From assembly GCA_964503955.1 (NCBI GenBank), contig CAZDCG010000004.1:16181-80180 (forward strand): a stretch of DNA of 64,000 bases, in the 5' to 3' direction. The notes beneath the pieces are model-generated. The model was not told the DNA's origin. It did no database searches and saw only the letters and a list, made by a program, of their open reading frames with translations. Source of the stretch: an uncultured Gammaproteobacteria bacterium. GTDB lineage: Bacteria > Patescibacteriota > Patescibacteriia > VMEV01 > CAYQCH01. Both the position numbers and the translations under genes were made by a program. Shown piece after piece: positions 5,143 to 54,722 of the stretch. Every line of letters begins with the position of its first letter. Positions within the stretch are counted from its first letter, which is position 1.

Positions 5143-5151
5143 TGGAATCTG

Positions 5152-34522: not shown

Positions 34523-34559
<37 letters not shown>

Positions 34560-36831: not shown

Positions 36832-36884
<53 letters not shown>

Positions 36885-37109: not shown

Positions 37110-37144
<35 letters not shown>

Positions 37145-37363: not shown

Positions 37364-37425
<62 letters not shown>

Positions 37426-37438
37426 TGGCTGTTCGCCA

Positions 37439-37490
<52 letters not shown>

Positions 37491-38032
37491 CTATCCGCTA
37501 TGCGCGTTAAGATTTGAGAACCTCCTTCTCTAGTACGAGAGGACCGAGAAGGACGAACCTCTAGTGTACCAGTTGTCCCACCAGGGGCACCGCTGGGTAG
37601 CTATGTTCGGGTCGGATAAGTGCTGAAGGCATCTAAGCACGAAGCCGTGTTCAAGATTAGATCTTTATTCCTCCTGGGAGACGACCAGGTTGATAGGCTG
37701 CAGGTGTAAGCCCCGTGAGGGGTTCAGCCGAGCAGTACTAATGGATTGAGGTAACCTTTCAGTGAATTTCTCTGCGTCATATTTCGCGCGCTTCTTTGTT
37801 GAGAGCTCCGGTGCTCGACGCCGTACATCAGTACGGTTTACTCCGCACCTCGCTCTCGCCTCGAATCGCACTGAAATCTGAACGAGATTAAAGCCGCTGA
37901 AAAGATAGCATAAATACGTTTGCGATCACATGCGACTCGCAAAGGTGCAGTTGATATTATTGGAAGTATTGCGTTCAGAGAAATGGAATGGAAAGAGACG
38001 ACTAATCATCTAGTCTGCTCCTTCTGGTGCCA

Positions 38033-38140
38033 TTTCCAGAGGGGTCACACCTGTTCCCATCCCGAACACAGCAGTTAAGCCCTCCAGGGCCGATGGTAGT
38101 GCACAGCGCGAGAGTAGGTCGGTGCCAGGTTATGAAAAGA
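38033..38140 (+). rRNA. 5S rRNA
   Basis: UCUGGUGCC...GGUCACACCUGUUCCCAUCCCGAACAC...GCCGAUGGUAGU...GAGAGUAGGUCGGUGCCAGG, with helix I pairing between the ends. Confidence 0.8.
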
Positions 38141-40344: not shown

Positions 40345-40469
40345 TTGTAGAAAATATTCTTCAAAAATCTCCATTTTTTGGACCTGATCTTAGCAAAAAT
40401 CAGGTTTTTTATTTTATTTTGCAGATAAAAAGTTGACAGGATATATGGATAGGCTATGATGAGCTGAGT

Positions 40470-41231
40470 ATGGTCACGCCTGAATTATTTCTCCATGGTT
40501 TGGGGCTTTCTCCCAAAGAAGTGTCCGTCTATCTGGCCTTGCTGCGCAGGGGGCCCAGTTCAGTTCGCCAATTGTCCGAAGTTTCCGGGGTCAACCGCGG
40601 AACGACCTACGACATTCTCAAATCGCTGCAGGAACGAGGCGTTGTTTCCTTCTACGATGAATCAAAGAAAACATACTTTGTGGCAGAAGATCCTGGATCG
40701 CTCGCGCAAATGATTGATGACCGCCGCCAGGAAATTCTTCAGCTGCAGCAGCAATTGCAGGACGTTTTGCCTCAGCTTTCATCGATCGCCAAACAGGCGG
40801 CAAAATCAAAACCGGTTGCACGGTATTACCATGGAGCAAAGGCTATTCGTTCTATTCTCCTTGAGGTGCTCAGTGATGTATCGCAATTACCGAAGAAGGA
40901 ATATTTCGTCTATTCTTCTTCCGTCATTGCGCAGCATCTTTACGACGCGATCCCCGATTTCACAAAACGGCGGACACAAGCGGGCATTTTCGTCTCGGTG
41001 ATCGCCCTTGGACCGGGGGGATCGAATCATGAGCAGCTTGCCCAGCGACGCTGGCTGAGCAAAGAAGCCAGAGCTATGACCTACACCATTATTTTTGGAA
41101 GTAAAACAGCGTTCATTTCGCTTGATGACCAGGAGCAGCCGCACGGGGTGATCCTTGAAGACAGCAATGTCGCGCAGACCCAGGTTCTGCTATTTCAATC
41201 AATGTGGGAGACGCTTAATGAACATGTATGA
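40470..41231 (+). CDS. TrmB-family sugar-responsive transcriptional regulator
   Basis: N-terminal wHTH LGLSPKEVSVYLALLRRGPSSVRQLSEVSGVNRGTTYDILKSL plus C-terminal effector domain; overlaps the downstream nucleotidyltransferase gene by 4 nt. Confidence 0.65.
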   Translation: MVTPELFLHGLGLSPKEVSVYLALLRRGPSSVRQLSEVSGVNRGTTYDILKSLQERGVVSFYDESKKTYFVAEDPGSLAQMIDDRRQEILQLQQQLQDVLPQLSSIAKQAAKSKPVARYYHGAKAIRSILLEVLSDVSQLPKKEYFVYSSSVIAQHLYDAIPDFTKRRTQAGIFVSVIALGPGGSNHEQLAQRRWLSKEARAMTYTIIFGSKTAFISLDDQEQPHGVILEDSNVAQTQVLLFQSMWETLNEHV

Positions 41232-41980
41232 AAGTCCTCATTCTTGCTGCCGGAAAAGGAACGCGCATGAAATCTGAAATGCCAAAAGTGCTCACGCCGC
41301 TTGCCGGTAAATCGCTGATTGAGCATGTGCTTGGCGCGGTGAAATCGAGCGGCCTTGATCCCAAGCCAACGATCATTGTTGGCCATGGAGCGGATCAGGT
41401 AAAAGCCCATTTGAAGGATCATGATGTTCATTTTGTGGAACAGCATCAGCAGCTTGGGACCGGACATGCGGTTGCCGTTTGCGAGCACGCGGTTGATCCT
41501 AATGAAGATGTCATCATTGTCTACGGAGATCATCCCGCAGTCAGGCCTTCTACCTTGAAGCGACTGGCGGAAATGCTGCAATACAGCCGCGGTCCGATTG
41601 CCATGGTTACCTATCGTATTCCGCATTTTGGCATCCATGAAGGCCAATTCAGCCGCTATGGCCGCATTCTGCGCGACGAGGACGAGAATATCTGCGCGAT
41701 CCGCGAAGCCAAAGACGCGTCGGATACGGAGCTTGACGTGAAAGAAATCAATCCGGGCTACTACGCGTTTCACGGGCCTTGGCTTTGGCAGAATATCAAG
41801 CGCCTTTCAAAGGCAAACGCTCAGGGCGAATATTATCTGACGGAATTAATTGAGCTTGCGATTAAGCAGGGAGAAATTCTTGATACCATGATCGGCGATG
41901 ACCTCGTCGAAGCGATGGGGGTCAATACTCCTGAACAGCTGGCCATGGTCGAAAAGCTTCTTAAACGGAATTCTCCATAA
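41228..41980 (+). CDS. Sugar-1-phosphate nucleotidyltransferase resembling the GlmU N-terminal (UDP-GlcNAc pyrophosphorylase) domain, without the acetyltransferase domain
   Basis: MKVLILAAGKGTRMKSEMPKVL matches the GlmU/RmlA G-x-G-T-R-M motif; only 250 aa. Confidence 0.75.
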   Translation: MKVLILAAGKGTRMKSEMPKVLTPLAGKSLIEHVLGAVKSSGLDPKPTIIVGHGADQVKAHLKDHDVHFVEQHQQLGTGHAVAVCEHAVDPNEDVIIVYGDHPAVRPSTLKRLAEMLQYSRGPIAMVTYRIPHFGIHEGQFSRYGRILRDEDENICAIREAKDASDTELDVKEINPGYYAFHGPWLWQNIKRLSKANAQGEYYLTELIELAIKQGEILDTMIGDDLVEAMGVNTPEQLAMVEKLLKRNSP

Positions 41981-42002
41981 TTTCTCATCTCGTCTAAGCT
42001 TT

Positions 42003-42626
42003 ATGCGAATTATTCTCGACTTTGATCATACCCTCTTTGACATGCAGCGCATGCATCAGGAGCTTATTAGCGCGCTGGAGCGGATCGGCATCCCTGAAAA
42101 GATGTACAAAGAGGCCTATAGCCTTGAAACGCACTGGAAAGTGTTTACCGTGCAGGGATTTGCGAATCGACTGGCTTCTAAATCAGGCATCGCTCAGGAA
42201 ATCATTGAAAAAACGTTGTGGGATGTTGCCAAATCGAGCGGTCACTGCCTCTACCCGGATGTGATGGAGGTCTGCAGGGAACTCAAATCAGTCGGTCATA
42301 CGCTCATTCTTTTATCCTGGGGCGATGAAGATTGGCAGGGAGCAAAAATCGAGCAATCAGGCGTCCGTTCTTTTTTTGATGAAATTGTCACGATTACGGA
42401 TTTGAAAGCGGATTACCTAAAAGGGCGAGGCAATGGCAGGCCGGTTGTCCTGGTGGATGACAAGCCGGCTGAACTGAAATCCGTTCAGGAGGCAAGACCC
42501 GATATTCAGCTTGTCCGTATGCGAAGGCCCAATGCCAAATATTCTGATACGCCAACGCCGGACGGCATGACGGAAGTAACTTCCATGAGGGAATTGCAAG
42601 CTCATCTTCGAAATTCATCTTCATAG
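42003..42626 (+). CDS. HAD-superfamily hydrolase (putative sugar-phosphate phosphatase)
   Basis: DFDHTLFD motif I at the N-terminus (MRIILDFDHTLFD); the longer upstream ORF extension overlaps the previous gene and is unlikely. Confidence 0.6.
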   Translation: MRIILDFDHTLFDMQRMHQELISALERIGIPEKMYKEAYSLETHWKVFTVQGFANRLASKSGIAQEIIEKTLWDVAKSSGHCLYPDVMEVCRELKSVGHTLILLSWGDEDWQGAKIEQSGVRSFFDEIVTITDLKADYLKGRGNGRPVVLVDDKPAELKSVQEARPDIQLVRMRRPNAKYSDTPTPDGMTEVTSMRELQAHLRNSSS

Positions 42627-42629
42627 CGT

Positions 42630-44396
42630 ATGTGTGGGATTATCGCCTATAAAGGGAATCGCAATGCGGTTCCTATGCTTCTTGAGGGATTGCAGCATCT
42701 TGAATACCGAGGGTATGACTCCTGGGGGATCGCGGTATCTTCAAGTCCCGTGCGCGTGATCAAGCGCGTGGGAAAAGTGGGCGATATTTCCTTAGAGCAG
42801 GTTTTGTCGCTTGGCGAACATGCGCTGGGCATTGGCCATTCCCGCTGGGCCACGACTGGATCCGTAACGGAAGAGAATGCGCATCCGCATCTCAGCAATA
42901 ATGGGCGGTACGCGCTTGTGCACAATGGCATCGTAGAGAATTTTCAGGAATTGAAAGAAGAATTGTTGGGAGAACAATATTCGTTTACTTCAGAAACAGA
43001 CTCCGAAGTGATCGCAAACTTGATTCAGCGATACGCTTCTGAAATGGAATTTTTACCCGCGGTGCAAAAAGCCTTTTTACGGCTTGAAGGAAGAAACGCG
43101 ATTGTTGTGATTGATAAGGATCTACACCGTTTAGTTGGCGTGCGATTCGGATCTCCATTGATTGTGGGAATCGGAAATGATGAATGCTTCATTGCGTCAG
43201 ATGTTCCGGCCTTCCTTGCGCATACAAGAGAGGTGAATTATCTCGATGATTATCAAATGGTAGTGGTGGATGACGCCCCTCGTTACTATGATGTGAGAAC
43301 GCTGCTGCCGGTTGAGCGCCGAACCGTGACCATTGATTGGAACGCGGAGCAAGCGGAGAAAGGCGATTATCCTCATTTCATGATCAAAGAAATTCATGAG
43401 CAGCGTGAGACAATCCGGCGCGCAATCGAACAGGATGAGGAAGAGATCATGAAGGCGGTGCAAATGATCAAAGATTCCCGCGGAGCATTTCTTTCTGGTT
43501 GCGGCACGGCGGGCAAGGTATGCCATATTGGCGAATACTTTTTTAACGCCATCGCGCGCCGGCATACCAATTTTGTGATCGCGTCGGAATTCAGCAACTA
43601 CACCCCATTTTTGAACGAAAAAAGTTTATTGATGGTCGTTTCTCAAAGCGGCGAAACCGCAGACGTTCTCGAGGCCATCGAACAGGCAAAGGCAAAGGGA
43701 GTGAATATTCTTTCGCTGGTGAATGTGCGAGGCTCATCCATTATGCGCGCCTCCGACCTGTCTCTTTTAGTTAATGCGGGACCTGAGCAGGCGGTTGCGT
43801 CTACAAAGGCAACGACGGCCCAGATGTCGCTGCTCGCCTTGCTGGCATACGCGGTGAATGGACGACTGAAGGAAGGCAAGCTGCGTCTTACCGAGCTGGT
43901 TGGTCAGATCAACGAATGGTTGAACCCGCGCTATGAAGAGCATATTCAGAAACTGGCTGAACGGTTGCAAAACGAAACCGATATGTATTTTATCGGTCGT
44001 GGCGTGAACTATCCGCTGGCTTTGGAGTGCGCGATCAAGGTGCAGGAAGTCAGCTATATTCACGGCGAAGGTTTTGCGGGCGGTGAACTGAAGCATGGCC
44101 CTTTGGCGCTGATTAAAGAAGGAACACCGGTTGTTGCTTTAGTCGCTGATGATGGCAACAAGGCAGCGATTCTTTCAAATGCGCAGGAAGTAAAATCCCG
44201 CGGAGGGTATATCATTGGTGTTTCACCGACCAATGAGCCGGTCTTTGATTACTGGTTGCGCGTGCCCAATGAAGACGTGCTTTCACCGATTGTGAATATC
44301 ATCCCCGTGCAAATGCTGGCCTATCATCTGGGCGTTCTGCGGGGTAATAATCCTGATAAACCTAGAAACTTGGCAAAGAGTGTGACGGTGAAGTAG
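42630..44396 (+). CDS. glmS: Glutamine--fructose-6-phosphate aminotransferase (isomerising)
   Basis: MCGIIAY N-terminal nucleophile Cys, and two SIS domains (VSQSGETAD). Confidence 0.95.
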   Translation: MCGIIAYKGNRNAVPMLLEGLQHLEYRGYDSWGIAVSSSPVRVIKRVGKVGDISLEQVLSLGEHALGIGHSRWATTGSVTEENAHPHLSNNGRYALVHNGIVENFQELKEELLGEQYSFTSETDSEVIANLIQRYASEMEFLPAVQKAFLRLEGRNAIVVIDKDLHRLVGVRFGSPLIVGIGNDECFIASDVPAFLAHTREVNYLDDYQMVVVDDAPRYYDVRTLLPVERRTVTIDWNAEQAEKGDYPHFMIKEIHEQRETIRRAIEQDEEEIMKAVQMIKDSRGAFLSGCGTAGKVCHIGEYFFNAIARRHTNFVIASEFSNYTPFLNEKSLLMVVSQSGETADVLEAIEQAKAKGVNILSLVNVRGSSIMRASDLSLLVNAGPEQAVASTKATTAQMSLLALLAYAVNGRLKEGKLRLTELVGQINEWLNPRYEEHIQKLAERLQNETDMYFIGRGVNYPLALECAIKVQEVSYIHGEGFAGGELKHGPLALIKEGTPVVALVADDGNKAAILSNAQEVKSRGGYIIGVSPTNEPVFDYWLRVPNEDVLSPIVNIIPVQMLAYHLGVLRGNNPDKPRNLAKSVTVK

Positions 44397-44751
44397 ATGA
44401 GATTAATTATCGCCCACCCCTCGCCCCTCCTAAGCACGGAGGGGTGATTTGTAAGGATAAAACCTTCCCTTCCATTTAGGAGAGGCGAGGGGTGGTATTT
44501 TGAGAAATCAATAATGTTGATCATCATGAGCATCTTTACGACTCACCATCTCACGAGAGAAGATCCCTGGGCTGGCGCTCGGGCTTACGAGGATGGGGCC
44601 GGGGATGTAGACGCGACCTAAAATCGCGGCATCCTCGGCGAACATCAATCTTTCAAACCACCCGTTCGGGTGTTTTTTGACTTGCCGGTTATCTTGACAA
44701 ATATCCCTTTTTATGTCAGGGTGATTCTAAATCCAAATCAGGAGAACTTCA

Positions 44752-45294
44752 ATGGATGCAGGATTGCGTGACCTCGAGCGTGATGCGCTGAGCAACGGCG
44801 ATCCTCATGCCGAGGCTCGCCTGCTAAGGGAAAAAATTCGTTCCGGAGAGCTCAACCCTCACCTCGTGATGGCTGTTGCCTCCCTCGAGCATCCGGCCGC
44901 TTGCCTGGTCTATCCTGATCAGGCTCTGGGAGCTCACCCCTTCTCGGTGTCGCTGGTTGAAGCGGGGCGGCTGCATGTGGTGCGCGTCTTGTTCGCTGTT
45001 ACCATTAAGCTGCAGACGCAAGATGAACAGGAACGAGCTCTGATTAACGCTGTCTCTCATTGGCTTGCCTGTCCTTGTCGTGAGCACAAGCATGCCGTTG
45101 CCATGGCAAACCTTACGACGCCTAAGCACCCGGCGGGCGGATACTTCGTTCATTCGCTGGGTAGCTCAGTGACAAGGCTTCGCGACAAGCGTCTCAGAGC
45201 TGCTATCGCTTCCCACTGCTTCGTTTACGCTGGACTCAGCATGCCTCAAGGTCTTGTCCGGCAGACAGCATTGGATGCGATCCTGACAACCTAA
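44752..45294 (+). CDS. Hypothetical protein with elevated local GC (about 57 %); followed by an ORF-free structured region
   Basis: Good SD (AGGAGAAC-4-ATG); no recognisable domain. Confidence 0.45.
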   Translation: MDAGLRDLERDALSNGDPHAEARLLREKIRSGELNPHLVMAVASLEHPAACLVYPDQALGAHPFSVSLVEAGRLHVVRVLFAVTIKLQTQDEQERALINAVSHWLACPCREHKHAVAMANLTTPKHPAGGYFVHSLGSSVTRLRDKRLRAAIASHCFVYAGLSMPQGLVRQTALDAILTT

Positions 45295-45299
45295 CAAGC

Positions 45300-45550
45300 C
45301 CGGTAGAGTCGATGAGGGATACAACCGGGTGTAGATCCCTCCGCTGTTCACCAAGTGGGAACCGTGATGAGCAGCGAGTCGAGTGTTCCTGTACCCTTCG
45401 GGGTTCTATCATAGCCTGGCATTCTTTCGCTTTCGGGCGAAGGTCAACCGCGGGCACTTCTGCTTGACCTCACAGGTACAGTTTCAGGGCGCGGGTCGTG
45501 AGACCTTCGCCCATCGAGCCACTTCTTTCGGGAGGTGGCTCGTTCTTTTT
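45300..45550 (+). ncRNA. Candidate structured ncRNA (about 250 nt): several UUCG-capped hairpins, an 11-bp long-range stem (gggcgaaggtc/gaccttcgccc) and its own intrinsic terminator; class not identified
   Basis: No ORF; acccTTCGgggt, cTTTCGggcg, 45432-45515 hairpin; terminator gagccac...gtggctc + tcttttt at 45516-45550. Confidence 0.3.
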
Positions 45551-45605
45551 AACAAGTTTTTTATTGTTGGCGATGATAACCCATTCCTGCTAAACTGATC
45601 TTCCT

Positions 45606-46583
45606 ATGGAACAGAAAAAGATCGTTTTTTTAGGCGGAGGGGGAGGAGCAACCAATATCCTTCCCGGTTTGCGCGATGACTTTGATGTCACTGCCATTGT
45701 AACCACTTTTGATGACGGGGGAAGTTATGGATATCTTCGCCGCGATTATAAATCGCCATTAAGCGGAGATATCCGACGGGCTTTGGCGGCGCTCTCAACC
45801 AATGATCTTAAAGCAAGCGCAGAATTCCGTTTTCCTGAAGGCGGGTTGAAAGGGCATACCCTTGGCAATCTGCTCTTAGCATCCGAGTGGATACGGCATG
45901 AAGATGCTGAGGTGGCGATGGAATCGCTGCACCGGATTTTTGCCGTTAAAGGAAATGTGCTTGGCGTGTCCTATCAGCTGGCTGAATTGACGGCTGAGTT
46001 GATGGATCGAACCATTATCCGTGGCGAGGGAAAAATCGACGAACCGCATGCAAAATCGCATATCCGCATTCAGCGCGTTTGGCTTGATCCGGATCCAAAA
46101 CCCGCGCGAGGAGTGCTTGAAGCGATCGCGCAGGCCGATCTGATTATCATGGGGCCGGGCGATATTTATACAAGCATTATTCCTTGTCTGCTTGTTGAAG
46201 GCATTGCGCAAGCTATTCAGGCAAGCAAGGCAAAAACCATTTATTTTTGTAATCGCTTTACCAAGCATGGTCAGACAAATGGCTTTACAGCCGGCGATCA
46301 TTTGCTCGCGATCGAACAATATCTGCAAAAACGGCTCGATCTGGTTGTTCTTGAAATCTCGGAATTGCCAGAAGAGCTGATTGCTTTTCATGAAACACAA
46401 CTGGAAAAGCCTGTTTTATACGACATTGAACGGCTTCAGGCCGCGGGTTATGATATCAGGGAGGCGAAGCTGTTGGACGGCATAATCCATGAAAAAGCTG
46501 ATTCAGACCCGTTGAAAAGAAGCAAGATACGATATAAACCGGAGCTGGTAAGAGATGTGGTAGATCAGATTTCTGAACGCTGA
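45606..46583 (+). CDS. YvcK/CofD-like (UPF0052, gluconeogenesis factor family) protein
   Basis: N-terminal GGGGGATNILPGL and TTFDDGGSYGYLRR...GDIRRAL motifs typical of YvcK/CofD. Confidence 0.7.
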   Translation: MEQKKIVFLGGGGGATNILPGLRDDFDVTAIVTTFDDGGSYGYLRRDYKSPLSGDIRRALAALSTNDLKASAEFRFPEGGLKGHTLGNLLLASEWIRHEDAEVAMESLHRIFAVKGNVLGVSYQLAELTAELMDRTIIRGEGKIDEPHAKSHIRIQRVWLDPDPKPARGVLEAIAQADLIIMGPGDIYTSIIPCLLVEGIAQAIQASKAKTIYFCNRFTKHGQTNGFTAGDHLLAIEQYLQKRLDLVVLEISELPEELIAFHETQLEKPVLYDIERLQAAGYDIREAKLLDGIIHEKADSDPLKRSKIRYKPELVRDVVDQISER

Positions 46584-46676
46584 ATACTGAATGCCGACAC
46601 GCTGCCGCTGAGCGCTCAGTAATCAGCGGCCAGCCATGAAATTTCGTCTGTGTTCTGAGAAGTCTATGATGTCTGT

Positions 46677-47903
46677 GTGTCTATGTATTTAACCGAGGGC
46701 GAAGGAAAAACCTTATTCAAGGAGGCTGGTATACCCGTACCAGACTTTTTCTTTCATGAGAAAGGCGCAACGCTTCCTTCTCATGTCGCGTATCCGGCAA
46801 TGCTCAAAGCGCAGACGTTGAGCGGGTCGAGGGGGAAAGCTGGGCTCATTAAAGAAGCTGCCGACGCGCATGAAGCAGAAGCGATCCTTACAAAAATGTG
46901 GAAACAGCAAAGCCCGCGGCGATATTTTGAATCAATCCTGATTGAACCTCGTCTTCAGGCAAAAAGAGAATTCTATCTTAGTGTCACCTATGACACACTG
47001 TTGCGAAAGCCCATGCTAATGCTCAGCAAATTCGGAGGGATGGATATTGAGCTGGTGGCTAAACGGCAGCCAGATGCGGTTGTACAGATGGAACTCAGTT
47101 TGCTCCATCCGATCTCGCAACAGGAACTGGAACAAACATTTGTAAAAGCCGAGGTCCGCCCGGAACTGTTTCCATCGCTGTCAGAGATTGTTCACCATTT
47201 GTACCGGCTCTTTTTGCAATATGACTGCGAGCTGGCTGAAATCAATCCGTTGATAGAAACTGAGAATGGCTTTATGGCGGTCGACGCAAAGATCATTTTG
47301 GATGATACTGCTCTTTATCGGCACGAGCTCCCGTTTCCAAGACGAATGGGCGGTCGTCCACTTACGACAATGGAAGAACAAGCCCGAGCCATCGATGGAC
47401 GTTCACACCGCGGTGTAGTTGGAAGAACCTTTATCGAGCTTGATGGTAATATTGCCGTTCTTTCTTCCGGCGGGGGAGCCAGCGTTACTTGTCTGGATGC
47501 CTTAATCCATTACGGAGGCCGCCCCGCCAACTTTGCGGAGTATAGCGGGAATCCTGAGCGCGAAGATGTGCGCGATCTCACCAAACTCTTGCTTTCCAAA
47601 GAGGGGCTGGCCGGATTATGGGTGGTTGGTCCCACTGCCAATTTCACCGATGTACACGAAACAATTGGCGGGATTATCGATGCGCTCAAAGAAGTGAAGC
47701 CGAGCTTCCCGGTTGTCATCCGCCGCGCCGGCCCTAATGACGAAAAAGCCCGCGAACTGGTTGAGCATGTCAAAAAGGAAACCGGGCTTGATATCACTTT
47801 TTATGGTGAAGAAATTCCGATGACCGAGACCGCGAAGATTCTGTTGGAAAAATGCGATCCCAACCGAAGTGCCAGCGGAGCGGAGGCAGAGCATTTGTCG
47901 TAA
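46677..47903 (+). CDS. Succinyl-CoA synthetase beta-subunit-like ATP-grasp protein (SucC/citryl-CoA synthetase large-subunit-like); start GTG 46677 or ATG 46683
   Basis: ATP-grasp N-terminal half (LTEGEGKTLFKEAGIPVP...SGSRGKAGLIK) and C-terminal CoA-ligase domain. Confidence 0.7.
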   Translation: MSMYLTEGEGKTLFKEAGIPVPDFFFHEKGATLPSHVAYPAMLKAQTLSGSRGKAGLIKEAADAHEAEAILTKMWKQQSPRRYFESILIEPRLQAKREFYLSVTYDTLLRKPMLMLSKFGGMDIELVAKRQPDAVVQMELSLLHPISQQELEQTFVKAEVRPELFPSLSEIVHHLYRLFLQYDCELAEINPLIETENGFMAVDAKIILDDTALYRHELPFPRRMGGRPLTTMEEQARAIDGRSHRGVVGRTFIELDGNIAVLSSGGGASVTCLDALIHYGGRPANFAEYSGNPEREDVRDLTKLLLSKEGLAGLWVVGPTANFTDVHETIGGIIDALKEVKPSFPVVIRRAGPNDEKARELVEHVKKETGLDITFYGEEIPMTETAKILLEKCDPNRSASGAEAEHLS

Positions 47904-47961
47904 CTCGGTTTTATCTTAGGATGAGATCCATCCTGTCGGCGCTTGGGATGACGAAACTACT

Positions 47962-48411
47962 ATGTACAAAGCAGTCATTTTCGATTTCCTTGGAACGCTT
48001 TTCTTTGAAACTTCCTCGCTTGCTCCCGGCGCGGAGGATCTTTTACAATTCTGCAGGGAAAAAGGCTTAATGCTGGCCGCGGTTACAGCCGGGCAGTATG
48101 ATACAACCGAACTCAGCCGCCTTAAGCTTGATCAATATATTCCTCTGATCCGCATGGTTCAGACCTATGAAAGCAAGACACCAGAACTCTTTTCTGAGGT
48201 AATCAGCCAGCTTGGCGTAGAACCTAAGGAAGTGATCGGTGTGGGAGATTTGCTCCATAGAGAAATCAAATCGCTGAATCAGCTTGGAGCAACAACCATC
48301 AGCGTACACACGGAGCGGGCAGCAAGGGATGGATATGAGGAACCGCATTATAGGGCGAGGGATTTGTATGCTGTGAAGAAAATCATCCATTCTTTAATGT
48401 CTGAAAACTGA
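47962..48411 (+). CDS. HAD-like hydrolase (short), inserted between the SucC-like and SucD-like genes
   Basis: MYKAVIFDFLGTLF motif I; 149 aa. Confidence 0.55.
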   Translation: MYKAVIFDFLGTLFFETSSLAPGAEDLLQFCREKGLMLAAVTAGQYDTTELSRLKLDQYIPLIRMVQTYESKTPELFSEVISQLGVEPKEVIGVGDLLHREIKSLNQLGATTISVHTERAARDGYEEPHYRARDLYAVKKIIHSLMSEN

Positions 48412-48503
48412 ATCCTGATTTCTCGCTCTGGATTTGAGCCGCTTCAGAATCAGAAACGCAGGTCCAGTATTCAGAGATCAGATCTATCTTGATCAGACTA
48501 TAT

Positions 48504-49427
48504 ATGTCCATCTTCATCAATCAAGAAACACAATTCATTATCCAAGGCATCACCGGCAAGGAAGGACAACGCGCTGCTGCCTTCATGCAGGCGGCCGGAT
48601 CGCATGTGGTCGGCGGAGTGCGTCCCGGCAAAGCGGGAGAGGTGGTGGAGGGCGTGCCAGTTTTTGATACGGTGCGGGATGCTGTGGATGCATCAGGCAC
48701 GCCAAACCTTACGGCCGCGGATTTACCCTATGCGTTAGCGTCTGTTATTGTCGTGCCGCCGGCCGTGGTCAAGGCCGCCGTGGAGGAAGCGATTCTTGCG
48801 GGTGTGAAATTTGTTATCCCAATCGCGGAAGGGGTACCGGTCAGAGATATGTCGTATCTTTATGAGCTTGCTCAGCAGCACGATGCGCGTATTTTAGGAC
48901 CGAATACCGTTGGCATGATTATTCCGGGAATGTGCAAAGCAGGAGTGATCGGCGGAGCGGATAACCGCGCTTTTATGCCCGGCCCTGTCGGCATCATTTC
49001 AAAAAGCGGAGGCATGACCAGCGAAACGGCCCGGCTGCTCACGGCTGCCGGGTTCGGGCAATCAGCCTGCGTGAACATCGGCGGAGATAAGCTCATTGGT
49101 ACCGATTTCGTTGATTGTTTAAGAGCATTTGCGGATGATGAACAGACAAAGGTTGTGGTTCTGTTTGGAGAGATTGGAGGGCGCTATGAAGAAGAGGCAG
49201 CGCGGTTTATCAAAGAATCAAACTATGCAAAACCGGTGATTGCGTTTATTTCAGGAGCGTCGGCCGAGCGTTTTAAAGGGATGACATTAGGGCATGCCGG
49301 CGCGATCATTCATGGACAGCAGGGGACAAGGACCAGCAAGGTCCGCGCTTTGCAGGATGCGGGCGTGATGGTTGTTGACGTGCATCATGAGATCCTGGGG
49401 GAGGTGCGAAAAGCTCTGGATCTCTAA
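48504..49427 (+). CDS. Succinyl-CoA synthetase alpha-subunit-like CoA-binding protein (SucD/citryl-CoA synthetase small-subunit-like)
   Basis: IQGITGKEGQ...VGGVRPGKAG...VPVFDTVRDAV and the phospho-His loop region GHAGAII. Confidence 0.8.
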   Translation: MSIFINQETQFIIQGITGKEGQRAAAFMQAAGSHVVGGVRPGKAGEVVEGVPVFDTVRDAVDASGTPNLTAADLPYALASVIVVPPAVVKAAVEEAILAGVKFVIPIAEGVPVRDMSYLYELAQQHDARILGPNTVGMIIPGMCKAGVIGGADNRAFMPGPVGIISKSGGMTSETARLLTAAGFGQSACVNIGGDKLIGTDFVDCLRAFADDEQTKVVVLFGEIGGRYEEEAARFIKESNYAKPVIAFISGASAERFKGMTLGHAGAIIHGQQGTRTSKVRALQDAGVMVVDVHHEILGEVRKALDL

Positions 49428-49496
49428 ACTCTGGAGATCTAGAATCTGGATCTCTAGATCAAAGAGATCAAGAGTAACTGAAAACACCAGGTCCCC

Positions 49497-49904
49497 CTAG
49501 GCCTGGTGCTCTTTGTCTTCACGCAGCAGGGCGCAAAGATGCATAAGAAATTGTCCCTCCAAATCCGTGTGGAGTTCGCCGAACGAATGCTGTGCGAAAC
49601 GCATTGAATAGTAGAGCGTTTCAGCCCGAGCCCCTTTCAGAAGCTCGATGAGCTCGTGGCGGTCGCGCCGCTTCCAAATGAGTCTTGCAAATTGCAGGAT
49701 CTCGTCCACGACGCCGGCGGGGTACGGATTGCCGATAACGAAGTTGACCCAGAATCTGAGAAACCGCTTCTGCCGCTCGTATGGCAGGATTCTAAGCAGG
49801 GCAATGCTGGTATCAATGAGACGGATCAGATTATGCCGGTCTCGGCATTGCCACATGTCCACAAGGACCCGATACGATTGCTTCTCCTTGTCGCAACTTG
49901 ACAC
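49497..49904 (-). CDS. Hypothetical protein with an internal repeat (CRDRHNLIRLID / RRDRHELIELLKG), opposite strand inside the CoA-ligase cluster
   Basis: SD AAGGAGGGGG upstream of a GTG; about 55 % GC; no known domain. Confidence 0.4.
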   Translation of the reverse strand: MSSCDKEKQSYRVLVDMWQCRDRHNLIRLIDTSIALLRILPYERQKRFLRFWVNFVIGNPYPAGVVDEILQFARLIWKRRDRHELIELLKGARAETLYYSMRFAQHSFGELHTDLEGQFLMHLCALLREDKEHQA

Positions 49905-49974
49905 GCCCCCTCCTTGGTGGAAAGCTTGATGAGATAAACCTATTGTTCACAAAGCTATACGATTTGTCAAAACT

Positions 49975-50646
49975 ATGGAACAACCAACCATTCGTGAAAA
50001 GCTGATCGAGGACATCCTCTCTGAAATGAGCTTTGCGCAAGCCCTTTATTTCACCTGGACCGGCCGAAAGCCAAATACGGCACAGAACGAGCTTCTGGAA
50101 GCGATCTTTATTGTATTGCTTGATCATGGCTCGGAGGCGCTTTCCACAAAAACAGCCCGCCTGGCCGCCTCCGGAGGGGCAGCATTTCACGCAGCACTTG
50201 CGGCCGGTCTGATAGCGGCGGGCAAGCATCATGGTTCAATTCCTTTGCAAGAGGCAATGCGGCTTTTTCAAACAGCGGTCAGAGAAAAAACACCGGCGGA
50301 TCAACTGGTTGCAGACGTTTTGTCGGCAGGCAAGCGGTTCCCGGGCTATGGGCATCGAGTGTATGAAACCGATCCTCGCACCATGCTTTTATTAAAGAAA
50401 GCAGAAGCACTGGGCATGTGGGATAACCATGTTGAATTTGCGTTGTCCGTGGAACAGGAACTTGAAAAGCAAAAAGGCAAAAAACTTTGTTTAAATGTCG
50501 ACGGCATGGTTGGAGCATTGCTCCCAGGTCTTGGGCTGTCTGCAGAGATTGCGCCTGCTGTCTTTTTGGTCGCTCGTTCTATTGGCATGGCCATGCATAT
50601 CGCCAATGAGCAAAAAGAAAAGCCCGCGTCTTTGCGCGAAGCCTGA
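49975..50646 (+). CDS. Short citrate-synthase-fold protein resembling citryl-CoA lyase (Ccl) or the C-terminal domain of ATP-citrate lyase
   Basis: GYGHRVYETDPR citrate-synthase signature and C-terminal LNVDGMVGALLPGLGL...ARSIGMAMHIANE helices; only 223 aa. Confidence 0.65.
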   Translation: MEQPTIREKLIEDILSEMSFAQALYFTWTGRKPNTAQNELLEAIFIVLLDHGSEALSTKTARLAASGGAAFHAALAAGLIAAGKHHGSIPLQEAMRLFQTAVREKTPADQLVADVLSAGKRFPGYGHRVYETDPRTMLLLKKAEALGMWDNHVEFALSVEQELEKQKGKKLCLNVDGMVGALLPGLGLSAEIAPAVFLVARSIGMAMHIANEQKEKPASLREA

Positions 50647-50677
50647 AAGGTAACCGTAAAGGGCAAGCCTCCGGTCT

Positions 50678-50899
50678 CTAGGAGATCGAAGGCCTTATCT
50701 GCCCGCGTATGCGTCTTGACGGTTTCTTCGAGGCTTTGTCATGTTCCGATGAAACGTTCTCTTTGACAAGACCGGTCATGGCCTGGATCAGAGCAACGAA
50801 TATCAGAACGATGATCTTGATGATCATGAAGACAATAGCCAGAACGATAACAACGCACAGCAGCAGATACTGGATGGCCGTACCGATATGGCCGGACAT
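50678..50899 (-). CDS. Small (73 aa) two-TM protein with a highly basic C-terminus (holin-like topology), hypothetical
   Basis: Perfect SD AAGGAGGG-4-ATG; TM1 AIQYLLLCVVIVLAIVF, TM2 IIVLIFVALIQAM. Confidence 0.5.
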   Translation of the reverse strand: MSGHIGTAIQYLLLCVVIVLAIVFMIIKIIVLIFVALIQAMTGLVKENVSSEHDKASKKPSRRIRGQIRPSIS

Positions 50900-51003
50900 G
50901 CCGCCCTCCTTTCTGCCGGCATTATCACAAGAATATCCTGAATTGGCAAATGCAATTTCGGCCTAAAAAGAAGCGAGCCCAGTCGCACTATGCGACCGGG
51001 CTC

Positions 51004-51222
51004 TCAACGAATCTCCCCCAAACGGACAACCGCTCCGATGACGTAGAACACCCCCGCGGGACAGGACATCATCAGGATCGATTGCACCGGGGCATTGCGG
51101 AAGTCCGCCAGCATCCAAGCGAAAAACCCGAAGGCGCTTGAAATGACCAGCCGCAGTCCCACCTCGACCCAGTCGATCCCATCGTCGCCGGTATCCTCGT
51201 CTGCCGTCTGCTCGTTTTGCAT
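51004..51222 (-). CDS. Small (72 aa) membrane protein with an acidic N-terminus, hypothetical
   Basis: SD AAGGAGGGAGC-ATG; two hydrophobic segments. Confidence 0.5.
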   Translation of the reverse strand: MQNEQTADEDTGDDGIDWVEVGLRLVISSAFGFFAWMLADFRNAPVQSILMMSCPAGVFYVIGAVVRLGEIR

Positions 51223-51319
51223 GCTCCCTCCTTGCTGGGCTCAGCTTGCCTTATGAGCAGGGGATATGTCAAACAACTGGATTTGCGGCAACTTCATTCT
51301 TTGCTTATGATAGAAACAT

Positions 51320-51874
51320 ATGTATGAAATTTCTTCTTTGATCGTGACATTTCTCAAAGAGCATCTCGGCCAGATTGCCGGCATCATCTTACTTTTTCTG
51401 TTCGGCAAACTGCTTCTGAAGAGGCTGGTGCGAAAGATCGCCAGGCTGATCGGCAATCATGGAAGTACTCCCACCAAACAAAAAAGAAAAGAGCAGCAGA
51501 TGCGCACATTCGCCCAGGTGGTGATCACCACGGGCAATGTGATGATTTACAGCGTGATCGTATTCATGATTCTTGATTTGTTCAATGTCAATCTCGGGCC
51601 TGTGTTAACCGGAGCAGGAATCATCGGCCTTGCGGTGGGTTTTGGTTCTCAAACATTGGTGAAAGACTTCGTTTCCGGGTTGTTTATTATCATGGAACAG
51701 CAATACGGTATTGGCGATGAAGTGAAAATCGGTGACGCGGAAGGCGAGGTGATAAAGATGACCATGCGTTCGACTGTGCTCAAAGACAAAGAAGGAAACC
51801 GCATTTTTTTAACGAATGGAACGATTACCAAGGTGATCAATCGTTCTCAGGGAATGGAAAAAGCCGGAAAATAA
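51320..51874 (+). CDS. Small-conductance mechanosensitive channel (MscS family, short form)
   Basis: TM3-like GAGIIGLAVGFGSQTLVKDFVSGLFIIMEQQYGIGDEV and beta-domain GEVIKMTMRSTVLKDKEGNRIFLTNGTI. Confidence 0.75.
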   Translation: MYEISSLIVTFLKEHLGQIAGIILLFLFGKLLLKRLVRKIARLIGNHGSTPTKQKRKEQQMRTFAQVVITTGNVMIYSVIVFMILDLFNVNLGPVLTGAGIIGLAVGFGSQTLVKDFVSGLFIIMEQQYGIGDEVKIGDAEGEVIKMTMRSTVLKDKEGNRIFLTNGTITKVINRSQGMEKAGK

Positions 51875-51957
51875 GGTTATCTCCGAAGATAGCTCAGCCA
51901 AGGTTGATTTTGTTCCTGTTCTGTGATCAAATATGACGTGGGCGGAAGGAGCTTACC

Positions 51958-52122
51958 ATGCTTGAGCTCATTGGCTTCACGGTTGCGGCAAGTGTCGCGC
52001 TGGGGGTTGTCTACGTCTATGACAAACCTCAGGAGACCAAGCGGCCTCCGTGGTGGCGGTCGGATGTCTGGCACCAGATGGAAAGCAAACGCAATCCATT
52101 CCATCCGAAGTATCCGCACTGA
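51958..52122 (+). CDS. Unannotated 54-aa single-TM small protein
   Basis: SD GGAAGGAG-6-ATG; TM LIGFTVAASVALGVVYVY; local GC about 58 %. Confidence 0.4.
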   Translation: MLELIGFTVAASVALGVVYVYDKPQETKRPPWWRSDVWHQMESKRNPFHPKYPH

Positions 52123-52370
52123 CAGGAGGTGCACACATGAGGAGGTTAGAAGAACCTCCATAGCGCATCGCTTCCCCGAGCAAGGGTAGTCGATGCGCTT
52201 CGCTTTCCAGGCAAGAATTGACGTGTTAGGATAGCCCCAAAAGGGGCATTTTTTGATGGGGACGAATCGCGAATCTGTACAAATGTACGGATAATCCAGT
52301 ATCTCCGTCTACATGTCTTGGCTAAATGAGATCATTGTGCCGAACAGGAGAAGGAATTGATCAGCAGTTT

Positions 52371-53063
52371 ATGAATGTAAACAACATTTTCCCTCATGCG
52401 TCTGAATCCACGAAAGAAGTGCTCGCAAATCTGCCCGCTCTTTCCTGGGCTGATATTTTCCAGCGCCACGCATCATTTAAACAAGAGGGGAAATGCCATT
52501 CCACAAGCATTATCTCTGACCGGGTTGGTATCGGCATGGGGACGGAAATCGGCCCTTTCGTGGTTATTGAAGACAATGTGCTTATCGGAAAAAATTGCGT
52601 TATTCGCGCCGGCGCGCTTATTCGTTCCAATACGATTATCGGCGATGATTGCGTGATTGGGCATGGCGCAGAGATCAAACACGCATTCATTTTTGATCAG
52701 GCAAAAATCCAGGGCAATGTTTTCGTGGGGGATTCCATTATCGGCAAAGGCGCGCGCCTTGGAACAGGCGTGGTGATCGGAAATCGCCGTTTTGATCAGC
52801 AGGAAATTTCCTGGCAAACCGAAGATGGTCTGGTGGCTTCCGGTTCAGACAAAGTCGGCGCATTGATCGGTGATTACGCGCGTTTGGGGGCCAATGTCAC
52901 CACGAATCCCGGAACGGTCATCGGGGCATTTACCTGGATCATAGGTGGACAGGCAATTGGAGGGTTCATTCCGGCCAGGACGTTCGTGAAAGGGAAGGGA
53001 GAGCTGGTGGAGAATCTTCATGCAAAAGAGCTATCGGCCGTTGACAAGAATGGACAATATTAA
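52371..53063 (+). CDS. Hexapeptide-repeat (left-handed beta-helix) acyltransferase resembling the GlmU C-terminal acetyltransferase domain
   Basis: Repeated [LIV]-G-x-x-x-x-[IV] hexads (IGKNCVIRAGALIRSNTIIGDDCVIGHGAEI...); the start is uncertain (52326 or 52371). Confidence 0.65.
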   Translation: MNVNNIFPHASESTKEVLANLPALSWADIFQRHASFKQEGKCHSTSIISDRVGIGMGTEIGPFVVIEDNVLIGKNCVIRAGALIRSNTIIGDDCVIGHGAEIKHAFIFDQAKIQGNVFVGDSIIGKGARLGTGVVIGNRRFDQQEISWQTEDGLVASGSDKVGALIGDYARLGANVTTNPGTVIGAFTWIIGGQAIGGFIPARTFVKGKGELVENLHAKELSAVDKNGQY

Positions 53064-53106
53064 ACACGTCCACGTGTTCGCACATACATCTGTAAACACC
53101 TTTACG

Positions 53107-54393
53107 ATGATTACCGACCTCCACATTCATTCTAAATATGCCCGTGCCTGCTCCAAACTTCTGGATCTGGAGCATATTTTTTTCTGGTGCCAAATCAAGG
53201 GCATTGATCTGGTTGCTTGCGGCGACTTTACGCATCCTGCCTGGTTTAAGGAAATCGAAAACAAGCTGGAGCCTGAAGGAAACGGTTTTTTTCAATTACG
53301 TTCAGAGGAGACAATCGCCGTGAGCCGGTCAATCGGCTTTGCGCCGCCCTCGCCTAAACCAGTTCGTTTCCTGCTTGGGACCGAGATATCCTCAATTTAT
53401 TCACAAGGAGGCAAAGCGCGCCGCATTCATCTGCTGATTCTGTTTCCTGAATTGGCGCACGTAAAGCGATTCAATCAGGAATTAATCAGGCGGGGTGCGA
53501 ATTTGCACGCAGACGGGCGTCCGATTCTTGGCCTGTCAGCCCAGGAAATTGCATCAATTTGCCTGGACATTTCAGATCGGGCTCTGCTTATCCCCGCGCA
53601 TGCCTGGACCCCCTGGTACGCGATATTCGGATCCAAATCCGGCTTTGATTCCGTTGAAGAATGCTTTGGCGAATACGCTCAATTCATTTATGCCTTTGAA
53701 ACCGGATTGTCTTCCGATCCAAAAATGAATTGGATGCTTTCTCAAAATGACCGCTATGCCGTTGTATCAAATTCCGATGCGCATAGCCTGGACAATTTAG
53801 GACGGGAAGCCAATGTTTTTTCGTTTCCTGAAATGACTTATGACCAACTTGTTTCCGCTATCAAGGACAAGGATCCCCAGCGGTTTTTATTTACGATCGA
53901 GTTTTACCCCGAAGAAGGGAAATACCACTTGGACGGGCATCGAATATGTGGCTTTTCCTGCATGCCCGAGGAAACAAAAAAACTCAATGGACGCTGTCCA
54001 AAATGCGGCAGGCTGCTGACGGTTGGCGTGCATCATCGCATCTCCGAATTGGCGGACCATCCATTCGGCCGCGAGCCCAAACAAAAGATTCCGTATAAAA
54101 GCATTGTTCCTTTGCAGGAAATGATTGCAGATATGCTTGCCGTGGGAAAGAAAACCAAGAAAGTTCAGCAGTTGTACCAAAAAGCGATCACCCGGCTCGG
54201 AAATGAATTTCACATTTTGCTTGAAAACGAGATGGAAGAGATTGCACAAGTTGATTCTTTGCTTGCCGAAGGTGTTCGTCGCATGAGATCAGGAGAAGTG
54301 CATATAAAACCGGGATATGACGGTGAATATGGAACGATGAAAATTTTTGATGAAAAAGAGCCTGCTCAAGAGAAGCAGGGGAGTTTGATTTGA
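53107..54393 (+). CDS. PHP-domain nuclease resembling endonuclease Q (EndoQ / TIGR00375 family) with a Cys4 zinc ribbon
   Basis: DLHIHSKYA, HLLILFP, PAHAWTPW, SNSDAHS PHP motifs, then C-x2-C...CPKCGRLLTVGVHHRI; the upstream in-frame extension overlaps the previous gene. Confidence 0.55.
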   Translation: MITDLHIHSKYARACSKLLDLEHIFFWCQIKGIDLVACGDFTHPAWFKEIENKLEPEGNGFFQLRSEETIAVSRSIGFAPPSPKPVRFLLGTEISSIYSQGGKARRIHLLILFPELAHVKRFNQELIRRGANLHADGRPILGLSAQEIASICLDISDRALLIPAHAWTPWYAIFGSKSGFDSVEECFGEYAQFIYAFETGLSSDPKMNWMLSQNDRYAVVSNSDAHSLDNLGREANVFSFPEMTYDQLVSAIKDKDPQRFLFTIEFYPEEGKYHLDGHRICGFSCMPEETKKLNGRCPKCGRLLTVGVHHRISELADHPFGREPKQKIPYKSIVPLQEMIADMLAVGKKTKKVQQLYQKAITRLGNEFHILLENEMEEIAQVDSLLAEGVRRMRSGEVHIKPGYDGEYGTMKIFDEKEPAQEKQGSLI

Positions 54394-54722
54394 GTCCGAA
54401 GAAGAAAAGCTCGCGAAACGCCCCCATGATGCAATATCTAAATTCTACGTCTACATCTATATCTAAGCCACAATTGGCAGTCAGATCGGCAGATCCAGAA
54501 GGAGATGTAGACAGTAGATGGTTATAAAACCGCCATATTTTGATGAAATGCGAGGAGATGACGAGAAACGCAAGTGAAGCGTACGTGAGTGTACGCTGAA
54601 TGCGTATCGGGGTCATTGACGAAGCAGATCGCGAAATATGGCGGTTTTACAATCAAAAAACCCCCACAAGCATGCAGGGATTTTTTGTATTTTTCCGACC
54701 GGAAAAAGGTCGTTAGAAGTGT

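Follow-up and report, generated by a model that had tools for sequence, protein, structure and literature searches.

Genes at the locus

A 64,000-nt stretch of contig CAZDCG010000004.1 (assembly GCA_964503955.1; hereafter the window) carries, between positions 46677 and 50646, a gene cluster predicted to encode ATP-dependent citrate cleavage. The predicted enzymes are a two-subunit ligase resembling citryl-coenzyme A (citryl-CoA) synthetase (CCS; large subunit CcsA, small subunit CcsB) and a separate citryl-CoA lyase (CCL; gene ccl). The five open reading frames (ORFs) that a preliminary description had listed for this region were all recovered at the same positions:

46677 to 47903, plus strand: CcsA-like protein, predicted large (beta-like) subunit of citryl-CoA synthetase; 408 aa; ATP-grasp_2 and PF16114 domains
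47962 to 48411, plus strand: HAD2, a cap-less HAD-fold protein between ccsA and ccsB; 149 aa; Pfam HAD_2, 2.7e-9
48489 to 49427, plus strand: CcsB-like protein, predicted small (alpha-like) subunit of citryl-CoA synthetase; 312 aa
49497 to 49904, minus strand: orf135, lineage-specific hypothetical protein in the ccsB-ccl slot; 135 aa
49975 to 50646, plus strand: Ccl, predicted citryl-CoA lyase; 223 aa

The CcsA-like ORF probably begins at the ATG at 46683, for a length of 406 aa that matches database entry P0047, and the CcsB-like ORF at 48504, for 307 aa. The ccsB-like region (48489-49427) and the CCL region (49975-50646) are encoded apart, on either side of a minus-strand ORF and with no fusion of the AclA/ACLY type, and the same split was present in all relatives examined. 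Pfam matches in four of the five proteins exceed chance by a wide margin. Sequence evidence supports a citrate cleavage set composed, as in Hydrogenobacter, of a two-subunit CCS-like ligase and a stand-alone CCL. The preliminary description had proposed a split system of the CCS/CCL type, and this was borne out by the motifs and domains of the large subunit and by the sequence, tree placement and predicted fold of the lyase. The enzymes represent a new lineage of this known kind.

A predicted citryl-CoA lyase of 223 residues

The 223-aa protein matched Pfam Citrate_synt (PF00285; 1e-37) over profile positions 145-349 of 357 only, and is the stand-alone counterpart of just the C-terminal two-thirds of citrate synthase. 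The citrate synthase signature GYGHRVYETDPR, already picked out in the preliminary description, lies at residues 124-135. Searched against all PDB sequences, the protein scored 145.8 bits with the CCL of Hydrogenobacter thermophilus (6hxp; ~36% identity), compared with 77.7 bits for the best citrate synthase and 54.7 bits for the CCL module of ATP-citrate lyase (ACL). Its four best NCBIfam matches were CCL models and six such models were matched in all, every one below threshold.

Related proteins form a conserved family of 219-235 aa with 48-69% identity. Across 22 members, the catalytic residues H51, H127 and D176 and the ligand residues H86 and R201 were invariant and R128 and R221 nearly so; the catalytic and ligand residues align with their equivalents in 6hxp and in citrate synthase 2c6x. 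Trees were built for the lyase and the beta subunit, using a simple numpy implementation of neighbor-joining (NJ) with Kimura-corrected distances, in which deep nodes are unsupported. In the lyase tree, short CCLs from the window clade, DPANN archaea and Aquificae were separated from citrate synthases with a bootstrap of 100%, and the window Ccl clade itself had 98% support. An AlphaFold2 (AF2) model (predicted local distance difference test score 92.4) had 6hxp as its top Foldseek match, with a template modeling (TM) score of 0.88 and a root mean square deviation (rmsd) of 1.6 A. TM scores were 0.83-0.88 against the CCL modules of Chlorobium and human ACL vs 0.70-0.76 against citrate synthases.

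By sequence, phylogeny, conserved catalytic residues and predicted fold, the 223-aa protein is assigned as a putative citryl-CoA lyase. The earlier preference for a lyase over a bona fide citrate synthase was upheld by the PDB scores, the fully supported split in the NJ tree and the fold match to 6hxp. A truncated or pseudogenised citrate synthase was considered and ruled out, because the protein belongs to a conserved family with invariant catalytic residues, groups with CCLs at 100% support and is confidently predicted to adopt a complete, 6hxp-like fold.

Predicted synthetase subunits

The CcsA-like protein combines ATP-grasp_2 (PF08442; 8e-35) with Citrate_bind (PF16114; 4e-26, 92.2 bits against a cut-off of 26.8), and no Pfam match to the Ligase_CoA domain of SucC was found in it. 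Among PDB sequences it scored highest with the large CCS subunit of H. thermophilus (6hxq_B, 182.3 bits), followed by the beta subunit of Thermus succinyl-CoA synthetase (SCS; 142.3 bits) and Chlorobium AclB (138 bits). At four diagnostic positions it reads SGGGAS, EYSGNP, TANFTDV and RRAGPN, where SCS reads NGAGL, DIGGGA, NIFGGIT and RVAGT. The elements SGGGAS, EYSGNP, ANFT and RRAGPN are common to the CcsA-like protein, 6hxq_B and 6hxj_A, and SCS is without them; EYSGNP and ANFTDV are even nearer to AclB than to CcsA. In the citrate complex of human ACLY, whose citrate-binding residues were reportedly described by Sun and colleagues in 2010, citrate is bound by Asn and Thr of ANFT together with Arg of RRxGP. 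Scores against SucC models were under their cut-offs (TIGR01016 subfamily, 216.3 bits vs 375.55; NF001913 equivalog, 207.1 vs 370). The beta-subunit NJ tree united the window clade, a bacterial metagenome-assembled genome (MAG; L029) and DPANN sequences in a clade of their own with 100% support, apart from both CcsA of H. thermophilus and AclB of Chlorobium, within which the window clade was nested among mostly DPANN archaeal sequences (90/83/99% support). Judged by its sequence, the large subunit is of the CCS/ACL type and not of the SCS type.

The small subunit is the weak point. The CcsB-like protein has Pfam matches to CoA_binding, Succ_CoA_lig and Ligase_CoA, and, when aligned to the alpha subunit of SCS, keeps the phosphohistidine loop GHAGA (as LGHAGAII) and GEIGG. 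It scored 302.6 bits against the NCBIfam SucD model (cut-off 336). Its PDB scores were 226.9 bits for an SCS alpha subunit (2yv2) vs 197 bits for H. thermophilus CcsB (6hxq_A). By sequence, then, it appears as near to SucD as to CcsB, with scores slightly in favor of SCS-alpha. The synthetase assignment in the preliminary description therefore stands for the large subunit, which is CCS/ACL-type, and calls for correction on the small subunit, which is not specifically nearer CcsB than SucD.

The scores of the small subunit would also fit an ordinary SCS lying beside a decaying citrate synthase fragment, in line with public annotations of homologs, which include succinate--CoA ligase and citrate synthase along with acetate--CoA ligase family and hypothetical protein. 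Against this, the beta subunit carries Citrate_bind and has neither the SCS motifs nor Ligase_CoA, and the 223-aa protein comes from a conserved family whose catalytic residues are intact and is confidently modelled with a complete fold. Domains, catalytic residues, NJ trees and fold effectively refute this explanation, to which we assign next to no probability.

A different hydroxy acid, such as malate, citramalate, isocitrate or 2-methylcitrate, could be the physiological substrate instead of citrate. The three proteins score under curated family cut-offs, the CPR (candidate phyla radiation) and DPANN large subunits form a fully supported clade apart from characterised CcsA and AclB, and characterised CCLs exceed the lyase in length by 25-45 aa. 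Set against these points are the retained citrate-binding motif residues of human ACLY, the invariant His, His, Asp and Arg ligands for oxaloacetate and citrate of the citrate synthase type, and the close fold match to CCL. We regard a substrate other than citrate as very unlikely.

A HAD-fold protein as probable partner of the synthetase

The gene between ccsA and ccsB encodes a HAD-fold protein, HAD2, whose motif I reads DFLGT (DFNGT in related loci L005 and L106), so that the general acid/base at Asp+2 is missing. Its AF2 model, built from a shallow alignment of three sequences, showed a HAD Rossmannoid core and no cap, and a PDB profile search and the AF2/Foldseek comparison gave generic HAD matches only (PH1655, NANP and dehalogenases). 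HAD2 was found in three of eight clade loci, each time between ccsA and ccsB, with orthologs in L005 and L106. In addition, two CcsA homologs, P0093 (566 aa) and P0106 (561 aa), are fusions with a C-terminal cap-less HAD domain; these domains align with HAD2 over its full length (26% identity; E values of 5e-8 for P0093 and 2e-10 for P0106) and likewise lack Asp+2 (DFGYT and DFGHT). The fusions are located at L111 7361-9046 and L112 236-1921, and the gene order in L111 is CcsA-HAD fusion, ccsB, CutA1, ccl, an inositol-monophosphatase-family gene and a GNAT.

The preliminary description correctly noted a HAD gene inserted between the synthetase subunits. Because HAD2 recurs between ccsA and ccsB and is fused to CcsA in other lineages, comparison of these loci indicates a recurrent accessory partner of the synthetase and not a chance insertion. 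The partner might regulate or proofread phospho-enzyme or acyl-phosphate intermediates of the synthetase. A separate fusion was seen in Aenigmatarchaeota locus L053, where a 653-aa archaeal protein (3938-5899) consists of a full GlmU-like enzyme, with NTP-transferase and left-handed beta-helix (LbH) domains, followed at the C terminus by a HAD domain in which the DxD motif is canonical; its gene lies directly upstream of ccsA with a 4-nt overlap.

Hexosamine genes around ccsAB-ccl

The citrate cleavage set in the window is embedded in genes predicted for synthesis of uridine diphosphate N-acetylglucosamine (UDP-GlcNAc), together with other features:

40470 to 41231, plus strand: TrmB-family transcription regulator, first gene of the conserved block; Pfam TrmB, 2e-16
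41228 to 41980, plus strand: stand-alone N-terminal (uridylyltransferase) half of GlmU, bacterial-type; TIGR01173, 220.9 bits, positions 1-238 of 452
41898 to 42626, plus strand: HAD hydrolase 1, conserved beside GlmS; Pfam HAD matches from residue 38
42630 to 44396, plus strand: GlmS, glutamine--fructose-6-phosphate transaminase; NF001484, 647.7 bits (cut-off 381); TIGR01135, 623.5 bits (cut-off 418)
44752 to 45294, plus strand: orf180, lineage-specific ORF in the GlmS-YvcK slot; 180 aa
45606 to 46583, plus strand: YvcK/GlmR-type UDP-GlcNAc-binding protein (CofD family), immediately upstream of ccsA; TIGR01826, 247.9 bits (cut-off 196)
49485 to 49508, no strand: terminator-like GC-rich hairpin between convergent ccsB and orf135; 9 pairs, T-rich tail
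51320 to 51874, plus strand: small MscS-type channel, conserved neighbor of ccl; Pfam MS_channel; same position in L107, L108, L109 and L110
52326 to 53063, plus strand: stand-alone LbH acetyltransferase, equivalent to an archaeal-type GlmU C-half; TIGR03992 Arch_glmU, 128.8 bits, positions 232-391 of 393
53020 to 54393, plus strand: PHP / TIGR00375 (MJ0043_C) protein overlapping the end of the acetyltransferase gene; conserved neighbor

Both GlmU halves score below the full-length cut-offs, each corresponding to half of its model. The stand-alone LbH acetyltransferase, presumed to consume acetyl-CoA, has a probable start at 52371 and shares 31% identity with the LbH domain of the GlmU-like protein of L053. 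GlmU appears to be split into two genes ~10 kb apart and of different ancestry, the N-half being bacterial-type and the C-half archaeal-type. The same split occurs in Woykebacteria locus L113, and a stand-alone N-half occurs in marine Parcubacteria locus L116. HAD hydrolase 1 probably starts ~100 nt downstream of the ORF start, since orthologs are called at 203-208 aa, and a HAD gene likewise lies between GlmS and an NTP-transferase in DPANN loci L053 and L088.

Gene order in the window was kept in all eight clade loci with enough flanking sequence. The TrmB gene holds the same position in L105, L106, L107, L109 and L116. In relatives, yvcK and ccsA either overlap or are separated by 1-8 nt (44 nt in L110), and the LbH acetyltransferase gene is retained downstream of ccl in L005 and L106-L110. 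The PHP/TIGR00375 gene follows the LbH gene in L106, L108, L109 and L110, and is the last gene of a compact glmS-glmU-ccsAB-ccl operon in L116. Two relatives also carry a gene of the CitMHS family (citrate:cation symporters) ~4.4 kb downstream of ccl (L105 15059-16354 and L006 5770-7062, both on the minus strand).

Beyond the clade, a GlmU-type acetyltransferase or GlmS neighbors ccsAB-ccl in six of about 15 divergent CPR and DPANN lineages. In L116, whose CcsA is 39% identical, the tightly packed order is TrmB, GlmS, alt_bact_glmU, ccsA, ccsB, ccl and GlmU N-half, with alt_bact_glmU (280.9 bits; cut-off 225.3) ending 3 nt from ccsA. In L113, an archaeal-type LbH acetyltransferase gene is followed after a 64-nt gap by ccsA, ccsB and ccl, and the set is divergent from the dcw/Mur cluster that holds the GlmU N-half. 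Daviesbacteria locus L114 has an Arch_glmU-like gene one gene upstream of ccsA. Among archaea, L053 encodes GlmS, HAD, NTP-transferase, CofD/YvcK, the GlmU-like-HAD fusion, ccsA, ccsB, ccl and phosphoglucose isomerase (PGI) with 4-nt overlaps, and an archaeon represented by L040/L088 encodes GlmS, HAD, NTP-transferase, a GlmM-like protein (best match Arch_GlmM, 369.6 bits, cut-off 439), a GlmU-like protein (best match Arch_glmU, 291.4 bits, just under the cut-off of 292.1), ccsA, ccsB and ccl. Gene orders differ among the hexosamine-linked lineages, and in the Ccl tree as in the CcsA tree the carriers from archaea are placed in other subclades than those from bacteria.

Proposed role of the citrate cleavage set

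We consider it fairly probable that the window encodes a split ATP-dependent citrate cleavage system whose acetyl-CoA mainly feeds UDP-GlcNAc synthesis. By homology, the CcsA-like and CcsB-like proteins would act together as a citryl-CoA synthetase: ATP would phosphorylate the His of the small-subunit GHAGA loop, the phosphate would then be transferred to a citrate molecule held by the large subunit's citrate-binding domain, and attack by CoA would yield citryl-CoA, ADP and Pi. Ccl would then split citryl-CoA into acetyl-CoA and oxaloacetate at a His/His/Asp site of the citrate synthase type. Gene context suggests that the acetyl-CoA would go mainly to the stand-alone GlmU-type acetyltransferase of the same block, which together with GlmS, the YvcK/GlmR-like protein and the GlmU uridylyltransferase half would produce UDP-GlcNAc for peptidoglycan and the cell envelope. 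Citrate would presumably be scavenged from a host or the environment, HAD2 would serve as an accessory partner of the synthetase, and orf135 would stand outside the system. Acetyl-CoA supply for UDP-GlcNAc is the best-supported role because the recurrent, often translationally coupled neighbor of the set is a predicted glucosamine-1-phosphate acetyltransferase accompanied by GlmS and a GlmS regulator.

Supply of acetyl-CoA for amino-sugar acetylation, and not the reductive tricarboxylic acid (rTCA) cycle, is therefore the likeliest role. Participation in a CO2-fixing rTCA cycle, one that a partner organism might share, would agree with the homology to Aquificae enzymes, with a proposal of a shared rTCA cycle for pairs of DPANN and host (bioRxiv 10.1101/2022.10.25.513756) and with the fumarase gene that adjoins ccl in Iainarchaeota locus L007. 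However, the scanned ORFs of the 64-kb window and the eight clade loci yielded no further TCA or rTCA gene, Parcubacteria are generally fermentative and have no TCA cycle (PMC6851277), and the surrounding genes serve amino-sugar and cell-envelope synthesis. This explanation is highly improbable.

Another possibility is that the enzymes run in reverse as an ATP-conserving citrate synthase, converting acetyl-CoA, oxaloacetate, ADP and Pi to citrate, CoA and ATP and gaining a fermenter one extra ATP by substrate-level phosphorylation. Moller, Schauder, Fuchs and Thauer reportedly described such a reverse, ATP-conserving ATP-citrate lyase in Desulfobacter postgatei in 1987. In favor of this direction, ACL and CCS/CCL catalyze near-equilibrium reactions. 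CPR bacteria also depend on substrate-level phosphorylation (PMC6851277). Aconitase, isocitrate dehydrogenase and other citrate-consuming genes were not found nearby among the ORFs scanned, though, the recurrent neighbor is a presumed acetyl-CoA consumer that would compete for the substrate, and relatives carry a gene of citrate importer type near the cluster. The chance of reverse operation is slim.

A broader alternative is that citrate is scavenged into central metabolism at large, by way of pyruvate or phosphoenolpyruvate, acetate plus ATP, or other acetylations, and that the adjacency to hexosamine genes is functionally meaningless. Citrate scavenging has been proposed for a Gracilibacterium, which has a putative two-subunit ACL together with citrate transporters (Sieber et al. 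2019; PMC6851277), and Patescibacteria and DPANN have been counted among ACL-bearing citrate consumers (PMC13014828). GNAT acetyltransferases, and not GlmU, lie close to the set in L111 and L115, and phosphoglycerate kinase (PGK) belongs to the same conserved block. Opposed to this is the placement of a GlmU-type acetyltransferase or GlmS beside ccsA in six divergent lineages from two domains, in varied orders and often with overlapping stop and start codons. Such adjacency with varied gene orders is hard to explain without functional coupling, and general scavenging is, in our estimate, unlikely.

Several observations nevertheless weigh against a dedicated supply of acetyl-CoA to UDP-GlcNAc. 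Nine of the about 15 lineages have no hexosamine genes beside ccsAB-ccl, an absence that general scavenging would accommodate; in Iainarchaeota and in an unassigned metagenome locus (L082) the neighbors are fumarase or glutamate dehydrogenase. The hexosamine link is not universal. Synteny within the clade also takes in the housekeeping genes PGK, PolA and RuvB and is weak evidence when taken alone. Within the window, the opposite-strand ORF interrupts the run from ccsB to ccl, making a single operon a possibility at most, and the acetyltransferase gene lies 1.7 kb downstream of ccl, past two opposite-strand small ORFs and the MscS gene. No ORF of the PGM/PMM family that could represent GlmM was found among the window ORFs scanned (GlmM may be encoded elsewhere in the genome), and a tblastn search of the 64-kb window with the CitMHS protein of L105 for a citrate transporter was negative. 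The enzyme assignments have their own counterweights in the SCS-leaning PDB scores of the small subunit and in the NCBIfam results, where all three proteins fall under the curated cut-offs; the top model for Ccl, NF004869 (citryl-CoA lyase), gave 183.9 bits vs a cut-off of 212.

More tentatively, and less likely than not, a distinct CPR/DPANN clade of split CCS/CCL may have been recruited as a dedicated citrate-to-amino-sugar module, moved as a block between domains together with GlmS/GlmU and with the HAD protein as a new subunit. The acetyl group of UDP-GlcNAc would then derive from scavenged citrate. Oxaloacetate might also provide the hexose skeleton through gluconeogenesis; PGK, PGI and glyceraldehyde-3-phosphate dehydrogenase are neighbors. 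How host-dependent CPR and DPANN organisms that are without most of central metabolism obtain their building blocks is a central open question. If supply of acetyl-CoA for amino sugars is the true role, citrate would be named as a metabolite that the partner or environment must provide, TCA-like genes in genomes without a TCA cycle would be explained and a widespread mis-annotation of homologs would be mended. The set would form a third, compact lineage of citrate-cleaving enzymes, containing the shortest CCLs in this analysis, that bears on the scheme leading from CCS/CCL through ACL to citrate synthase, and the recurrent HAD partner offers a lead to an accessory function.

Variable slots, host and other features of the window

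Three variable slots interrupt the conserved block (GlmS-YvcK, ccsB-ccl and MscS-LbH), each holding different, unrelated genes in different lineages. Their contents include orf180 and orf135 in the window, a HisKA sensor and a penicillin-binding protein in L107 (3514-6338) and a MATCAP protein in L109 (5016-6410). Neither window ORF had a Pfam or NCBIfam match. No homolog of orf180 was found in any related locus, and relatives have unrelated genes in its place; orf180 does not count as a core gene. The sole homolog of orf135 among the related loci is in L005 (29-31% identity); other relatives have unrelated small ORFs or nothing between ccsB and ccl. The preliminary description had called orf135 repeat-containing: two RDRH(N/E)LI(R/E)L motifs are indeed present, and they are neither kept in the L005 homolog nor repeated at the DNA level. 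We conclude that orf135 is a variable-slot gene and not part of the citrate system. Two further small membrane ORFs lie on the minus strand between ccl and the MscS gene.

Three near-palindromic copies (TCTGGATCTCTAGA-like, with AGATCT and TCTAGA), spaced by 15 nt, span the ccsB stop codon and the following spacer at 49415-49473, before the hairpin, and may represent an operator or a structured RNA element. Just upstream of the TrmB gene is the region's best-scoring promoter-like site (40433-40460). Promoter and terminator counts across 40000-54500 were not above shuffled expectation overall, and give the hairpin after ccsB weak support only.

The host is a CPR/Patescibacteria bacterium of the Parcubacteria type. 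A CcsA homolog with 61% identity is labeled Parcubacteria group bacterium at NCBI. MAGs L005, L006 and L029, titled uncultured Gammaproteobacteria bacterium, carry the Parcubacteria-type block, including TrmB-led hexosamine genes, with PolA and further markers in synteny with the window, and their labels look wrong. The window includes a bacterial 23S rRNA gene (33888-37758) of 3871 nt, compared with 2925 model positions, and thus ~950 nt of insertions, one of which encodes a LAGLIDADG homing endonuclease (ORF 36082-36744). A 5S rRNA gene follows at 38023-38130, a tRNA-Leu gene lies at 32522-32608, and no 16S rRNA gene is adjacent.

FemAB, SpoIID, LysM/M23, large surface proteins, PolA and RuvB are also encoded in the window, and, from synteny with L107, the downstream block probably includes HU, YmdB and RNase Y. 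A 732-aa protein with three lamin-tail domains (5852-8050), a TSP3-repeat protein (23947-24867) and, putatively, an ORF of 2499 aa (24871-32370) are large surface-type proteins typical of episymbiotic CPR bacteria. Two unannotated large ORFs of the window were considered as transporters and rejected, being not polytopic. Local GC content peaks at 58.7% vs ~50% at 16000-18800, where ORFs overlap on both strands; a 434-aa ORF in this region (17433-18737), rich in Ala, Gly, Arg and Leu and with no family match, is probably spurious.

Comparison with known systems

The closest counterpart is the CCS/CCL system of H. thermophilus, whose CcsA/CcsB and Ccl were reportedly described by Aoshima and colleagues in 2004. 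As in that system (6HXQ, 6HXP), the window encodes three polypeptides: a large subunit with ATP-grasp and citrate-binding domains, a small subunit with GHAGA and a short lyase with the citrate synthase fold. For both the large subunit and the lyase, the top-scoring PDB entries come from H. thermophilus. Unlike the H. thermophilus proteins, the window lyase has 223 aa vs 268 aa in the crystallised CCL chain, and the small subunit (312 aa, vs 353 aa for CcsB) is without the C-terminal extension and nearer to SucD. The window genes are clustered, in contrast to the Aquificaceae loci retrieved, in which no ccsA or ccsB homolog was detected near ccl. Whereas Hydrogenobacter uses its enzymes in the autotrophic rTCA cycle, the window set lies in a UDP-GlcNAc context and has an accessory HAD protein.

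AclAB of Chlorobium limicola (6HXJ) and eukaryotic ACLY share with the window set the domain composition, the motifs of the large subunit and, as we infer, the chemistry. ACL combines a CcsB-like part and a CCL module in one chain, whereas these are separate genes in the window, and the window proteins score lower against ACL than against CCS/CCL. SucCD has the same two-subunit architecture, the phosphohistidine mechanism and a highly similar alpha subunit, but in the window a citrate-binding domain and ACL/CCS motifs replace those of SCS in the beta subunit, neither subunit reaches the SucC/SucD equivalog cut-offs and the set includes a CCL partner.

Like the window host, the Gracilibacterium with ACL is a CPR bacterium (PMC6851277). 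Its ACL has two genes, unlike the three-gene CCS/CCL split of the window with its HAD protein and its place among hexosamine genes, and no hexosamine link was reported in that study. CCS/CCL homologs in DPANN and CPR have been recognised as mis-annotated SCS or citrate synthase, and a syntrophic rTCA cycle was proposed for them (bioRxiv 10.1101/2022.10.25.513756). Given these precedents and the ACL-bearing Patescibacteria and DPANN (PMC6851277; PMC13014828), the system that the preliminary description called unexpected in this genome is not without precedent. A literature search of incomplete coverage returned no paper tying CCS/CCL genes to GlmU, GlmS or UDP-GlcNAc, or naming a HAD partner. 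Hence, CCS/CCL or ACL homologs in CPR and DPANN were already known, and the gene context and the HAD partner of the set described here appear to be new.

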